From Octopus vulgaris (lineage: Eukaryota), in NCBI GenBank assembly GCA_951406725.2, contig OX597820.1, forward strand, positions 84,940,001-85,004,000: DNA of 64,000 nt, read 5' to 3'. Position numbers and translations under genes: made by a program. Numbering within the stretch: the stretch's first letter is position 1; each line of letters starts with the position of its first letter. Below are positions 5,061 to 62,019 of this stretch, in pieces. Below the pieces are notes generated by a model. That model worked only from the letters and a program-made list of their open reading frames with translations, ran no database searches and was not told the origin of the DNA.

Positions 5061-6316
5061 ACCCTATGACGTATCCAAAGGGCAGGTTCATCTGTCAGAA
5101 CCTTTAATGGTCTAAATTTGACTGCGTCACAAAAGAAAAATTTCGGTTTTTCAATAATATTATGCACTATGTTTATTTTCTTTAAAGTAAAAACAATGAT
5201 TTCTCTGTATAAACTACGTTTGGAATGAACTTTCATTTGTGGCACATTGGAAATAAAATAAAGTCGAGTGAAGTAAAAGTTTAGTTGCAGACATATTTTG
5301 GGGGTTAATTTATCAACAGTAAATTCCATTATCGTGCATTCGAACAAAGAACGGTGAGAAGTACTGTCATCATAAACAGAAGGATATGCTGCAGCAACAA
5401 CATTATAAAGTCACCACTGCTATCCCCTTCTTACTTAAGACTATAGTTTTCGCCACCATCGCCATTTTTTCATCATCACACACTTTTCATCTGCTATTTC
5501 ATTCACATTTTCTCTGCTTTATTCATATACGAGTGAGTTTATGTATGTATGCGAGTCTTTTAATAAGTGAGTGTGAATGTTTTCCCCATGAAATTCCCAC
5601 ATGTGGATATCAAGTATAAACGCCATTATTTCATTGACGCTAGTTCGATAAGATGTAATCTTCTATATATCGCTTTGCAGTATTTTATACAATACTTGCT
5701 TTATTTTCTTCAAGTTATATTGCACCTATTTTTGTTTAACGTGTTTATCCCTTGCCGTTTGCTTATCAAGAGTGAGAAATGAAAGATGTTAGCGTTCTAT
5801 TATTTTAAAAGTTCAAAGTACTACATAGAGCCGCTTTTTTTCTCATCGCTTGTTATATTATTTGCACTACATAGAGTGATATAGTATCTTATGTGTAAAT
5901 CAATTCGACAGATTATACATAGTACTAGACATAAATACAACCTTCACATGATATCGTCATGTTCTCAGGTGTATGACGTATTCTGTTGAAGTGCTGTTAT
6001 CTTACGTTTTGACCATGCGTCGTATTTACCATATTTATTTCAATGACTAATAATGTAATACCATTTTTGTTTGCACCTTTTTTTGGCCAGGAATTCCAGT
6101 TGATAAAATTACAGAGAAATATCTTTCAGATCACAACCAAATGTCTAAAAATATGTACCGTTAATGTGTGCATTTGATTCAGTTACTATGGGCCCAAAAA
6201 TGGAGCTGGATTACTATTGTTGATAAATACGCTTAATCTGGACTGACAAAGCGGAAGGGAAGCAAGGAAATATCTCTGTATTTCTCTCCCTTTCTCTCTC
6301 TCTCTCTAACTGTCTG

Positions 6317-32841: not shown

Positions 32842-34214
32842 CTTTAATATATACATTTACATGTTAGTTTAACCTGCACATAAATCAGTGTAATGAAGTA
32901 ATGCGCTTTTTGACTATTTATTTCGTTTGGATTTTATCAAAGGAGTAAAAAGAACACTTTGAAAACCATAGAAAATATCCTAGCATAAAATAGCCACCTA
33001 CGTATATAAATGAATTCTCATTTATAATTTTGTTGCAAAAGCTTTATTTCCACATGTGAGATTGTGTGCAAAAGAATATGATGTTTCTTTTAATAGAAAT
33101 TTTACATTAACTAAATTCCATGTTGTATTTTATTAATATCAGTTTTGTTATATATCTTCATTTAGCTAATCTTTTAAATGGAAGCATAACTCAAATTTAT
33201 TTATTTAGGACTACATTTATTAAATCCTGTGGGATCTTTGCCTGAATTTATGTTCGCAATTTACTTCTTTCTTGAAGTATAAGTATCGCATAGAACATTG
33301 TTGAAAATTCAATAACTATTATCTGCCAAAATGCATTTTCATTCAGCATGTGACACTTCTATCGTTCTAAGCTGTAGTTTTTGAATTTCAATTTGAATAG
33401 CTGTTAATGATTTATTTATTTATTGTGGATTTATTTTAGATAAAATTATAAACTTTGCTCGTATTTCTTTTTAATGTATGCATTGAATCCGGAATTAATG
33501 AAGGATATTTTTAAAATTTTGTTAGTTTATATATTATTTTGAAAAATACAATTAATACGTCAAATATTTAAAATTGATATAGGCACTTATATGGATTATG
33601 GACATTACTAAGGTATGCCGTTTTATAATTGTTATCCATTCTCCTGCAAAATAGGTTCTACTTTGTACTAGAGTTTGTTCGTCGTAGATGTTTCGAGTTT
33701 ACATTTCATTAGATAATAATCGTGACTTTGATTCACTTGGTGAGGTTGCAAACTAAACGATTGCATTAGGTAAAAAATGTTTCCGAAATAATTTAAAAAA
33801 GCATTTTGGAGTAAAATGTGAGAGTGTCAATAATTCATAGAGTACTTTCCCCATAAACTGATGCCTCTACAATGAACTATGAATGGAAACAGAACAGATG
33901 ATTGTTTGGTATACAGGTGTATTTGATTGCATGCGTATGTATATATATATATATATACGAAAATACATACACACGCAAGCACACAAAATGTGACCGCGTG
34001 TGTACCGTTGGCGAATTTTTCCCTCCGTCTTCCCTTCTTTCGATCTTTCCTTTTCCTATGTTTCTGACGAAGAGCTCTCTTTAATACAAGACTTCTTTGA
34101 AAAAGATATTGAAAAGTGGTCTGACTGTGATGAGATCCTGGTTAGTTTACTCAAAGTGCAATCTCTTTTCTAAATACCAAATATCACTTCACAAGGGAGG
34201 GGGGCTCTGATTGG

Positions 34215-35400
34215 TTGAATATAATCAGAACTCTAGAAAATCATGAAAACAGCATGGGAAATAACAGGGAGATGTTGAGCTGGCTAACACGAAGGACAAA
34301 TAAAACCATTGTGGATCAACAATTTGTGGAAGCGTTGAGAAAAAACATGCAATACTATTTTGAAGTACTAAAAAGAGTTGTAGCAGTTATAAAGTTTTTA
34401 AGTAAAAGAGGTTTAGCATTTAGAGGTCATGAGGAAAAGTGGGGCTCCCCAGATAATAGAAATTTCATGGGGGCCATTCAGCCTATTGCGGAGTTTGACC
34501 AATGTTTACATGAACATTTAGAGAGAAAAAAAATGAAAAAGTAAATATTACTTACCTCTCCAAGTCTGTGAATTAAGAATTAATAGAAATCATGGGAAAA
34601 CACATGAAAGATGAAGTGATGAATCAGTTCTACAACCTAGACATCAAATACTACTCAATTATTGTTGCCGCTACACCTGAAATGACACATGTTGACCAGC
34701 TGGTAATTGTGGTTCGATACTGTCATAGTGGAAAATCGTGTGAGATATTTTTAGCATTTTGTCAATAGAAAAACCTTCATCCATAAACTTGTTCAGCAAA
34801 ATAACAATTTCCGTGGTCAGTCGTGCGATGATGCTTCCAACATGAAGGACTCTGAGAAAGGGCTGCAAGCACTTCTTTAAAATATTAACACGTATGCAGA
34901 CTATGTACTATGTGCAAGCCATTCACTCAACGTTGTTTGGTAAAAAGCAGTGTCTTCTGTACCTGCAGTTGTTGACTATTTTGGCATATTGCAGCAGCTG
35001 TATGTTTTCTTGAATCTCTTCGAAGATGGGAGATTTTGAACACACAGTGAACCTTTTCACTAGATGGTTTGCAGACTATGAAACAGTCCAGGCAAATAAA
35101 AATAGATATAGGGATACTTTACAAACTTACAAACTTATGTTTGAAGATTCAGAAGAGGAGTCTGAATGTAAGCGAGATGCAAAGAATTTATACCTCAAGT
35201 TGGTAATTTTGGAAAATGATGTTTTAACAGTCGTTTGGGAAGAAGTTATGGAGCGTTTTGACAAAACAAGTAAGAAGCTCCAAACCTCTGGTTCTGATAT
35301 ATTTGAAGGTTTGAAGGTTCAGATATATTTGTTAAGGAACTACGAGAAAATTCAGCCAACAGGATTGCACACTATGAATCAGTAGCAGAAGACACGTGTG
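34215..35400 (+). mobile_element. hAT transposase pseudogene (DUF4371/ZMYM1-like)
   Basis: IKFLSKRGLAFRGHEE..DNRNF..AEFD..LHEHL, YYSIIVAATPEMTHVDQLVIVVRY, GQSCDDASNM, YVLCASHSLN. Frameshifted. Confidence 0.85.
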
Positions 35401-41049: not shown

Positions 41050-42260
41050 TATATCCATTCTTGGAGCAATATTATTATTACTAATTGTTTTCGATTGAAA
41101 CAGTCATATCAATGAGGAAGCATTATTTTTGTCAGAGATCTTTCAATATAATGCCTGGCCTATTCGATCCATCTTTCTGTCAATTTGAACGATGAAATTC
41201 CAGAGAAGTGAAATTTTGTGGCACCGGAGGTAGTTTCTGTTCCCACCAGGTTCAGGTTTTTGCAAATTACCCAGTGAATAATTTGTGCTGTTCTATCATG
41301 CCTGTTGAGATACTCTGCCGGCGAAAGAAGACTGCACATGGAGAAAACAGGATAAATGGTTTCATTTTGTTGTTCAGATTCACGACATCTTCGGCTACTG
41401 CCGTTCCTTAATATGATACCCTGGAAGTTCCTTGTAGGTAGGCATTGGTCTTGGGCTGCTATGATAAATCCTTCTGCGTTTGATTTTAAGCCAGAAGACA
41501 CTAACCATTGATGGGTAAAGGCTTTGTCAACATCAGCACTATTAGCTCTCTTTCGGTATTTGCCATTGAGAGACTTTCCTTGCCATTTCTCATTAAGAAT
41601 ATCTAAGGCGGCTGTTTTGGCACGAGTTGTCTGTGTTTGTTTCTAGTACGTCTAATTCTGGAATTTTTGTATTTGGAATTCACTTAGATATTCCTCTGCC
41701 TGTTTTGTTACTGAGTATGATGTGTTCTTGTTTTCATACTTTGGGACAAGTTTCAACATCCAGTCATCAGAGATTTTCAGGTAGATATCTAGGCCAATTG
41801 TGTCAATCTTCATTGTTAATTCTAGCTGTATAAGTCCAGAGCCACCCTCTTTTCCTAACAGGAAAATCTCTTCTATATCAGCCTTGGCAGATTTGCCTTA
41901 GCGTGGTGCATTCTATGTATTGTCAACATTTTCCGTATTTTATGTCAAGATTACGTATTTCAGTAATTGACCAGTTAATGATATAGAAACTGTAAGTCAC
42001 ACTGGTATGGCTAAATAATTGATCGCTTCGATCCTGTTTCTTGCATTCAGCTCTGTCTTAAGTATTGCGCTCACCCTGCGATAACATTCTATTCTGATCC
42101 TTTCCCTCATCACTAAATCTTTGATTCTGTCCCTTCCAATTACCCCTAGGTATTTGTAGTCCTCCGCTGGTTCTAATTCTTTTATGAAATTCTACTTAGA
42201 TGTTTCTGTCGTTTTTCCTTTGATAAAGGTAGCTTTTGCACATTGTTATCGATTTAAGTA
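41050..42260 (-). mobile_element. R4/Dong-like non-LTR retrotransposon fragment (RT end, CCHC, RLE)
   Basis: GLKSNAEGFIIAAQDQCLPTRNF..RCR..ETI..CSLLSPAEYLNRHDRTAQIIHWVIC, with YKYLGV upstream near 42145-42160. Confidence 0.85.
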
Positions 42261-54190: not shown

Positions 54191-54400
54191 GAAGAAGAAG
54201 AAGAAGAAGAAGAAGAATGAATTATTTTTACTTTTTACTTTTTATTTTTTTTATTAATAATAATAATAATAATAATAATAACATCGTAAACAACTTAGGG
54301 ATAAGAATCCAGGTTCGAAATTTCCCCAAGACACCTGAAGAGGGATGGAGGGCATATTAGCCGAAAAGTTGTGTAAACAACAATCAAGATGAGGATAAAA
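53724..54400. mobile_element. Palindromic tRNA-head/(AAT)n/hammerhead element, copy 2
   Basis: Centre ccatatgtccACgggcatatgg (54061-54062). Both heads complete (53986-54060 -, 54063-54138 +). Same left end acagttctatatttaaga as copy 1. Confidence 0.9.
54331..54374 (+). ncRNA. Hammerhead motif, slightly decayed
   Basis: ACAC CTGAAGA G GGATG gagggcatat TAGCC GAAA AG TT GTGT. Confidence 0.65.
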
Positions 54401-59398: not shown

Positions 59399-60914
59399 AT
59401 ATATATATATCTTACTGACCTTATATTTTCAGATTTACAATCTTCATTGAATAAAGGCGACACTTCTTTCTGTATCCGTGTCCTTGTCTCACTTTGCCTT
59501 TCCGATTGCCACTCTTGATCTATGTTGATATAAACACGTCTGTGTGTGTGTGTGTTTGTGTGCATGTATGCTTGGTGTCTGTGTGTGTATGTATATGTAT
59601 AAAAACCCTACTTGAATATTGGGAAGGGAATCAGAATGGCGTGCTGGACCATTTCATTGATAATTTTATGAAACTGAAAAGCGAACTTTCGACGCTATTT
59701 CTCGTCGTCACACATTTATACATACACACACACACACATACACACACACACATACACACACACACACATGCATTTACACATTTGCACATACAGAAACAGT
59801 ATTCGTCTCAAGAAAGCAACTCTTATTAACATAAATGTGTTAAAACACATAAAAATATACCAGTATCAGGCGGTCACCTTCCAGCAACGGCGGTGATACA
59901 GCTGTTGTAATGGAAGCCGCACGCAAACACGAAATCGGCCACCACTGATATATTTCAATAGATTTTTCGCTCTTTCTTACTTTTTGTAAAAGAGTAGCTG
60001 TTTCCTTTTTTGCCTGGATGATTGCCCCATAGTACTCTGCATGCTATAAAAGATTTGATGATTACTGAACTGTCCTAGTATGAAACTTTCAGTGACGCAG
60101 ATATAAATCCGATGTTTAATATATTATACTTTTCGTTCACTGTGTGGAGACCTTTCCCTTTTTCATTTATTTTTGTAATCATATCCTCAGCCGTTCAGTA
60201 ATCTGCCTTTCTCTCCTTGTCTCTCTCCCTATCTCTCTCTCCTGCATGTCAGTGCCCTTCAAATTGCAATAATTGCATTTCGAGCGATCTTCAAAGATCA
60301 TTTTGATTAATGTTGGGGATTGATGCACTGGGAATCATAAGAACCACTTAAACTTAAAGAAGAAAAAATCATTACTGATTAAATATTAAGTTAAGCAAAA
60401 GATATTTTTGATTTTGTTTCTTTGGGAAATATGACGTAGACGCGCGCGCACACTCACACTAAAACATACTCGGACAATCATAAGCATACAAATACATACA
60501 CATACATATATATATCCACACATACATACGTACACACACATATATATATATGTATATACATACGTACATACAGACACACATACGCATATGTATGTATATA
60601 TATATATATATATATATATAAATATAATTTCAACAATTGAGGGTAAAATTAATTAATTATTAATCAATTTCACCAAGTGTTCAGTATGCAAAGGGACCAT
60701 TTAAGGCGAATTCAAATTATTACATTATATAAAAGGGCTTAGTAAAGTAAATTACTTTGCCGCATACTGAACTCATTAGAAATAGCAGCTAAAAAACTTT
60801 TTTAAAGCTATTTCTAATACTTAAAGAAAATCTCTCTCATATATAGTGTTTGCTTAATTCAACTCACAAAAGTTTGGGGGTAAGGACATCAATAAATCAA
60901 ATGCTAAGGTTATT

Positions 60915-60966
60915 TGAGAACGTACGTTTCAAGATTAGTCAAAACAACACTTCTATCTTCAGCTCA
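60915..60966 (-). ncRNA. Type I hammerhead ribozyme motif, unit 1
   Basis: TGAG CTGAAGA T AGAAGT gttgttttg ACT aa TCT T GAAA CGTACG TT CTCA. Canonical core, helix I TGAG/CTCA, palindromic helix III ACGTACGT. Confidence 0.75.
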
Positions 60967-61459
60967 GAAACTCCTTGGTTTGGATTTGGAAACACTGAAA
61001 GTAAGAACATACCCTTTCGAAGATCCGCTCGTAACTAACAGTGCCAACAAACCCAAATAAGCAAGCGAAGAATTTCTGTTCTCCCCTTTCCACCAGCGTG
61101 GGTTAAAATCATCAAACACTATGCTTATTTCGGTAAATCCGAAGAAATTAATTAGAGGGAGATTAATTATAATTTCAACAATTGAGGGTAAAATTAATTA
61201 ATTATTAATCAATTTCACCAAGTGTTCAGTATGCAAAGGGACCATTTAAGGCGAATTCAAATTATTACATTATATAAAAGGGCTTAGTAAAGTAAATTAC
61301 TTTGCCGCATACTGAACTCATTAGAAATAGCAGCTAAAAAACTTTTTTAAAGCTATTTCTAATACTTAAAGAAAATCTCTCTCATAAATAGTGTTTGCTT
61401 AATTCAACTCACAAAAGTTTGGGGGTAAGGACATCAATAAATCAAATGCTAAGGTTACT

Positions 61460-61511
61460 TGAGAACGTACGTTTCAAGATTAGTCAAAACAACACTTCTA
61501 TCTTCAGCTCA
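61460..61511 (-). ncRNA. Type I hammerhead ribozyme motif, unit 2
   Basis: Identical to 60915-60966, 545 bp away. Confidence 0.75.
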
Positions 61512-61965
61512 GAAACTCCTTGGTTTGGATTTGGAAACACTGAAAGTAAGAACATACCCTTTCGAAGATCCGCTCGTAACTAACAGTGCCAACAAACCCA
61601 AATAAGCAAGCGAAGAATTTCTGTTCTCCCCTTTCCACCAGCGTGGGTTAAAATCATCAAACACTATGCTTATTTCGGTAAATCCGAAGAAATTAATTAG
61701 AGGGAGATTAATTATAATTTCAACAATTGAGGGTAAAATTAATTAATTATTAATCAATTTCACCAAGTGTTCAGTATGCAAAGGGACCATTTAAGGCGAA
61801 TTCAAATTATTACATTATATAAGAGGGCTTAGTAAAGTAAATTACTTTGCCGCATACTGAACTCATTAGAAATAGCAGCCAAAAAACTTTTTTAAAGCTA
61901 TTTCAATACTTAAAGTACACACATTTCATATATATATAGTGTTTGCTTAATTCAACTCACAAAAG

Positions 61966-62019
<54 letters not shown>

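Follow-up and report, generated by a model that had tools for sequence, protein, structure and literature searches.

The window analysed here is the whole stretch of 64,000 nucleotides of Octopus vulgaris DNA (contig OX597820.1, positions 84,940,001 to 85,004,000). It contains a short tandem array, read on the minus strand, between a left (TA)n tract at 60586..60622 and a right (TA)n tract at 61968..62016. The left tract represents the insertion target, as nearly all insertions of the family lie in (TA)n. Two units of 545 bp each (unit 1, 60623..61167; unit 2, 61168..61712) differ only at 60842/61387 and 60913/61458 and are followed by a partial third unit at 61713..61967. In unit coordinates, where q1 corresponds to window position 60623, the third unit covers q1-252 and forms the 5'-truncated end of the insertion. 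Besides two substitutions and a 1-nt deletion, it carries a rearranged patch near 61916-61932 which was unique to the window locus among the loci compared. The longest stop-to-stop frame within a unit comprises 77 aa, and the two unit frames scanned had no match in Pfam. Regarding the gene context, nine other open reading frames of the window were also without a Pfam match. These results agree with the preliminary description, which had reported about 2.5 head-to-tail units inside (TA)n without a meaningful open reading frame.

Each full unit carries a putative type I hammerhead on the minus strand, located at 60898..60977 (hammerhead 1) and 61443..61522 (hammerhead 2). The layout is GAG-CUGAAGA-stem II-GAAA-CGUACG-UU-CUC. 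At the DNA level CTGAAGA starts at 60962 and 61507, followed by GAAACGTACGTT, and the predicted cuts lie at 60919/60918 and 61464/61463. Both the motif in every full unit and the cut positions had been proposed before and could be located as proposed. Two features are added in our study, namely the GUU cleavage triplet and a U.U mismatch at position 10.1-11.1, at the base of stem II. Stem III consists of 2 bp with a palindromic loop. Among 182 hammerhead copies from 87 loci, which were found by BLAST and are biased to intact motifs, C3, U4, G5, A6, A9, G12-A14, A15.1 and U16.1 were invariant, and G8 was present in 178. Variation was seen at N7 (58 A, 117 T, 7 C), at H17 (169 T, 13 A) and at the 10.1-11.1 mismatch. 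Moreover, in 14 sequences of three families 87.8% of the stem cells paired, compared with a maximum of 41.8% in slid controls, and 8 of the 14 pairs changed on both sides; as the families are related, these sequences count as about three independent states rather than fourteen. A core that varies only at tolerated positions and stems that covary across sister families support a type I hammerhead fold, and the core appears to remain under selection across families. A search of Rfam gave no hammerhead match, either at the gathering score or with E<=10.

The motif resembles the axolotl hammerhead HHR_Amex2, which also has a U.U at the base of stem II and a 2-bp stem III and whose self-cleavage is weak in the monomer and improves in the dimer (PMC7229834). 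For Xenopus retrozymes it was reported that eight of nine dimers stayed uncleaved in vitro (10.64898/2026.07.22.740005). Self-cleavage of the octopus transcript at GUU is a prediction. The caveat raised earlier, that AAGAUAG/CUAAUCUU can form a competing fold, proved to be justified: in the window copy this is the local minimum-energy fold and lies 7.8 kcal/mol below the hammerhead-compatible one. In sister families the corresponding gap amounts to 1.0-4.9 kcal/mol. The ACGUACGU palindrome would form an 8-bp duplex of -9.8 kcal/mol. The predicted 545-nt monomer between both cut sites (60919..61463, minus strand) folds at -147.6 kcal/mol with a z-score of -6.3 against 100 shuffles, and folded as a circle it reaches -143 for the minus strand versus -115 for the plus strand.

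The genome searched (G000; 2.8 Gb, 227 contigs) contained 1327 first-look candidates of the family, and the 40 loci scored were mostly 98-99% identical over full units. Exact (TA)n-q1 junctions occurred 752 times, exact (TA)n-q99 junctions 490 times and exact head-to-tail unit junctions 635 times, with 0 in the control in each case. Subfamilies share about 81 to 99% identity and have units of 545-571 bp. The copies are dispersed on many contigs with fixed junctions, and we regard them as a young, dispersed, non-coding tandem family. Of the sampled words, 35-56% were also present in sequencing runs that carry the labels of other organisms. Contigs of the runs X1, X4, X5, X8 and X17 cover the unit. 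One contig of X8 spans the head-to-tail junction, its shorter side measuring 197 nt, and together with the 635 exact junctions it shows that the tandem arrangement does not arise from an error at the window locus. X1, X4, X5 and X8 are presumed RNA runs; none of the runs containing the unit was recorded as RNA. The flank control is uninformative for the unit coverage in these four, as most of the unique flank stayed uncovered in the large runs X15 and X17 too.

The insertions have fixed outer ends at either of two sites, q1 and q88-104, which are separated by about 98 nt. The left edge of unit 1 is the q1 end, and the segment up to about q99 (60623..60720, minus strand) is referred to as the tail. 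For an unbiased view, 49 loci were picked solely by their q1 junction, a set that excludes 20 further loci; 45 were fully resolved and four ran past the fetched DNA. Of the 45, 35 were inverted insertions of two arms, the second of which ended at q88-104, and ten were single-armed. Among the 37 best-match arrays, 23 paired q1 with q92-104, four were two-armed with another end, eight were single-armed from q1 and two from q99-104. Before these counts L040 and L052 (duplicates of L041), the N-flanked L066 and L099 (the same as L058) were dropped. A pairing of q1 with q1 or of q99 with q99 was not found among the insertions examined. We interpret both outer ends as RNA 3' ends and the inner ends as 5' truncations; the window copy is then a single-armed q1 insertion truncated at q252. 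The preliminary description had expected variable, circularly permuted array ends and had read the non-integer copy number as a sign of rolling reverse transcription. Permuted ends were not found, the RNA 3' ends having fixed positions (q1 or q88-104), and a non-integer copy number is explained by ordinary 5' truncation and by itself does not prove rolling on a circle.

Among 150 5' ends only five fell in the hammerhead cut region q290-302, where a single locus was found genome-wide, and there was no pile-up at the cut site. A modestly preferred 5' stop was observed at q347-357 with nine of the 150 ends. Genome-wide it was present at six loci (two of them from the discovery set), compared with one and one at two other sites. 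This stop corresponds to window positions 60969-60979, just upstream of hammerhead stem I and at the base of a long hairpin, and is a candidate transcription start or stall of reverse transcription.

Two fixed 3' ends, an inverted 5'-truncated arm, partial tandem units and a microsatellite target were all found in the octopus insertions. Insertions of Penelope-type retrotransposons (PLEs) are described as partial tandems with an inverted 5'-truncated copy, an optional tail and a microsatellite bias (PMC8557442). For PAc the tail was traced in vitro to two internal start sites of reverse transcription, both target strands being cut and extended (PMC11167929). Since the anatomy of the insertions matches this Penelope tail signature, we favour mobilisation by a PLE, and the fixed ends and back-to-back arms suggest copying by a Penelope-type retrotransposon enzyme.

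Two sister families with periods of 601 bp (L204, L216, L217) and 578 bp (L182, L196) keep the same two fixed ends and are 71-75% identical to the unit in the q1-200 region. About 2000 and 1800 first-look candidates were obtained for the two. Their hammerheads have a long stem II, occupy the same place and differ in the sequence of stem I. A 496-nt piece of the 601-bp period aligned with the unit at 60% over 403 columns, including a part outside the tail, which suggests a long independent non-coding lineage. L108 and L159 also retain the q1-200 region at 71-75% identity, as separate inserts in TA tracts. Within this conserved region lies an internal hairpin at q153-196 (60775..60818, minus strand), recognised as a self-inverted match, which we infer to be a candidate enzyme-binding element.

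Unlike an autonomous EN+ PLE, the unit has no open reading frame for reverse transcriptase plus GIY-YIG between pLTRs. In tblastn searches with PLE proteins of the same genome, a PLE frame joined to the unit was found at 0 of 90 loci; matches in L053, L056, L095 and L134 belong to separate elements. Likewise, no carrier with an open reading frame was present in 60 loci found with the two sister families. A suitable enzyme exists, since intact 781-aa PLE frames with reverse transcriptase and GIY-YIG domains are abundant in the genome and their copies end in (TA)n. These frames carry a CxxxxCxxC linker and would be Neptune-like by that motif (PMC8557442). As a partner this family was rejected because its terminal repeat is not homologous to the unit, and no autonomous partner with 3'-end homology was found among 50 GIY-YIG loci examined (6136 first-look candidates). 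The sequence joined to the unit at q123 in L040, L041 and L052 was considered as a PLE body and was also rejected, as it represents one duplicated locus whose frames resemble, by their motifs, a mariner-type transposase fragment and a LINE reverse transcriptase. In a contig of run X5 the junction to the mariner-like fragment appears as a loose end.

The 781-aa PLE carries in its terminal repeat a hammerhead-like motif of its own, TTGATAA...GAAACATGTT, with U3-A8 replacing C3-G8 and a palindromic stem III. It was seen at L151:1270-1330 and 6055-6110 and also in L153, L154, L156, L166 and L167. The same element has an upstream open frame of 479 codons (L154:1268-2704) without a clear Pfam family, and L153 shows, at about 860-1480, some 600 extra bases in the 5' region that are absent from L151 and are possibly an intron.

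The variants within arrays bear on the template. In the 37 arrays there were 66 cases of a variant common to several arrays being fixed throughout a multi-unit array and none of partial mixing, and nine array-private variants in seven arrays were fixed across successive units. Divergence was 0.23% within versus 1.15% between arrays, and 15 haplotypes at eight sites were distinguished among the 37 arrays, none of them mixed inside an array. This pattern of one haplotype per array favours a monomer bottleneck, and a 545-nt circular RNA is a plausible prediction. Nevertheless, the simple reading of one monomer circle misses some insertions. Unit-specific variants common to both arms and in register were found in L031 (q377 and q23), L057 (q274) and L060 (q218). 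Fold-back of one cDNA was considered for all inverted arms and fits the symmetric cases; it fails for L057 and L060, where the register excludes it and therefore requires either two reverse transcriptions on one multimer or arm-to-arm conversion. Moreover, in 15 of 38 unbiased two-armed inserts both arms ended within 15 nt of the same position in the unit (permutation mean 3.1, 0/20000), compared with 4 of 27 in the long-array set. Several of these co-terminal inserts are near-perfect palindromes. Co-terminal arms would be expected if two cDNAs ran off the 5' end of one linear RNA. Together with the in-register variants they point to a linear or multimeric template for some insertions. From a linear monomer cut at q296/297 no more than 296 nt could be copied starting at q1; arms exceeding this length would require a circle, a multimer left uncut or jumps between templates.

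A change of copy number at the DNA level after insertion is evident as well, judging from one duplicated locus with 4.2, 6.2 and 2.2 units (L040, L041 and L052; contig C24) and from higher-order periods of 4 units in L063 and 933 nt in L035. DNA-level turnover of the kind seen at these loci could also produce homogeneous arrays.

The preliminary description had called the array retrozyme-like. This part can be retained, given a covarying type I hammerhead and a dispersed non-coding tandem that was joined to a PLE frame at none of 90 loci, and the part concerning variable ends has to be given up in favour of fixed ends. The octopus element consists of head-to-tail repeats, each full unit of which contains a type I hammerhead, is non-coding and unattached to an autonomous frame according to the translated frames, Pfam and the 90 loci, and forms a dispersed multi-copy family with signs of retrotransposition. 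As far as the definition can be tested in a sequence, it would qualify as an animal non-LTR retrozyme (PMC7229834; 10.64898/2026.07.22.740005), and it appears to work like a non-autonomous PLE. The class is already known and the octopus family is an added member. Cervera and de la Pena described such retrozymes in coral, mussel and axolotl in 2020 and proposed PLEs as the mobiliser (PMC7229834). The octopus element shares with them the low GC content and the non-coding head-to-tail repeats with one type I hammerhead per unit, whereas its unit of 545 bp exceeds theirs of about 150-450 bp. For those retrozymes circles and cleavage were demonstrated; for the octopus element both are predictions. 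The main text of that study lacks the terms 'inverted' and 'target site' and so gives no account of fixed ends or insertions with two arms.

Li, Clavereau and Pollet reported in 2026 that the non-LTR retrozymes of vertebrates represent non-autonomous PLE derivatives, defined by a minimum of two units in a row that contain a complete hammerhead and having units of 51-972 bp (10.64898/2026.07.22.740005). The same definition by unit number and complete hammerhead fits the octopus array. In vertebrates the link to PLEs is based on co-occurrence and pLTR homology; in octopus no pLTR homologue was found and the link comes from the anatomy of the insertions. The accessible part of their text does not contain the words 'tail', 'octopus' or 'cephalopod'. 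EN+ PLEs include Neptune, Naiad and the non-autonomous Chlamys/MRC1 (Craig 2021, PMC8557442), and Chlamys is known to have multicopy head-to-tail forms that are non-autonomous (PMC8557442). Like these elements, the octopus family has two internal start sites with a tail, an inverted 5'-truncated arm, partial tandems, microsatellite targeting and a hammerhead upstream of the ends (PMC11167929, PMC8557442). Unlike them, its unit is without an open reading frame, its tail measures about 98 nt instead of 30-40 nt and one long arm is strictly paired with one short arm. Besides, the TA-rich sites at which its ends are located correspond to the target, whereas the start site of PAc is not homologous to its target (PMC11167929). 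Two-armed fixed-end insertions as such are already known for PLEs and for non-autonomous Chlamys. In the literature we found no account of this family or of two-armed fixed-end retrozyme insertions, although Repbase, Dfam or supplements may list the family; the terms 'hammerhead' and 'retrozyme' are absent from the main text of a paper on octopus repeats (PMC13282606).

In our view the window array is a young copy of a hammerhead-bearing non-coding tandem element that was likely copied in trans by an EN+ PLE into (TA)n, a reading to which we assign a probability of roughly 0.78. The minus strand would be transcribed, and a PLE reverse transcriptase-endonuclease, probably a dimer, would nick both strands of the (TA)n target. 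Reverse transcription would be primed inside the RNA at two UA-rich sites, and two cDNAs would then be joined head to head or, as in the window copy, one would be joined to the target. The template would be longer than one unit and for some insertions most likely an uncut linear multimer. That at some stage the RNA is cleaved by its hammerhead and ligated into a 545-nt circle, resetting the arrays to one haplotype, has, we think, an even chance of being correct. Several points count against the reading as a whole: no autonomous PLE with matching ends was found, the hammerhead is not the predicted minimum-energy fold in this subfamily, Rfam is silent, most of the Xenopus dimers stayed uncleaved and PAc transposes uncut RNA in vitro. 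A more specific and tentative version is that a dimeric Penelope enzyme copies a ribozyme-made RNA ring, monomeric or oligomeric, from the two fixed starts into both nicked TA strands.

The role of the circle divides the alternatives. A pure rolling-circle model, in which every array derives from one 545-nt hammerhead-derived circle and the arms stop randomly, would accommodate the single haplotype per array, the private variants fixed across units, the long arrays (8 to 12 units or more) and the strong minus-strand folding. It would also explain the lack of a pile-up at the cut site, which is expected if the site is re-ligated. However, neither a monomer circle nor fold-back explains the register of L057 and L060, short of arm-to-arm gene conversion, and the co-terminal arms and the q347-357 stop suggest RNA 5' ends; we therefore consider this model unlikely. 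The opposite model dispenses with the circle. Here read-through multimers would be copied, the hammerhead being weak or late (protein-assisted as in PAc), and arrays would be lengthened and homogenised by unequal exchange. The in-register unit variants and co-terminal arms agree with it, as do the duplicated locus with its differing unit numbers, the higher-order periods and the Poseidon element PAc, which transposes uncut RNA in vitro (Frangieh 2024, PMC11167929). This model is similarly doubtful, as 15 haplotypes in arrays about 1% apart without any mixing would require very fast homogenisation, and a core under selection across families is at odds with it.

The two further explanations concern the nature of the repeat. 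If the unit were an ordinary terminal repeat (pLTR) of an autonomous PLE and the arrays its truncated 3' ends, the PLE-like end structure would follow directly. Many full units in a row without an open reading frame, the absence of joined PLE coding sequence at all 90 loci and the homology of the 601-bp sister beyond the tail make this explanation improbable. An assembly artefact or plain satellite DNA might be suspected from the long perfect arrays, one of which (L066) lies between N runs. It is barely credible in view of the many contigs with fixed junctions, the unit-specific variants and the junction in contigs of other runs.

The copying of animal retrozymes into DNA and an origin of PLE tandems from circular RNA have been proposed and not shown (PMC7229834, PMC4209133, PMC8557442). 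The octopus family provides predictions at the nucleotide level: one arm would start at q1 and the other at about q99, the target would be (TA)n and the cut would fall at q296/297. The variant patterns of the family distinguish circular from multimeric templates. If true, copying of a ring from two starts would be the circle-templated step long proposed for the mobility of retrozymes and PLEs and would offer a small non-coding substrate to reconstitute it.

Elsewhere in the window, decayed frames at 34146-35385 (+) and 41160-41642 (-), both without a Pfam match, resemble by their motifs a hAT-type transposase and a LINE remnant. Two further hammerhead-like motifs (CTGAAGA or CTGATGA ... GCCGAAA) are located at 54326-54385 (+) and 19780-19715 (-). 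They adjoin (AAT)n tracts and belong to a different repeat, and similar motifs occur in L045, L168 and L200.
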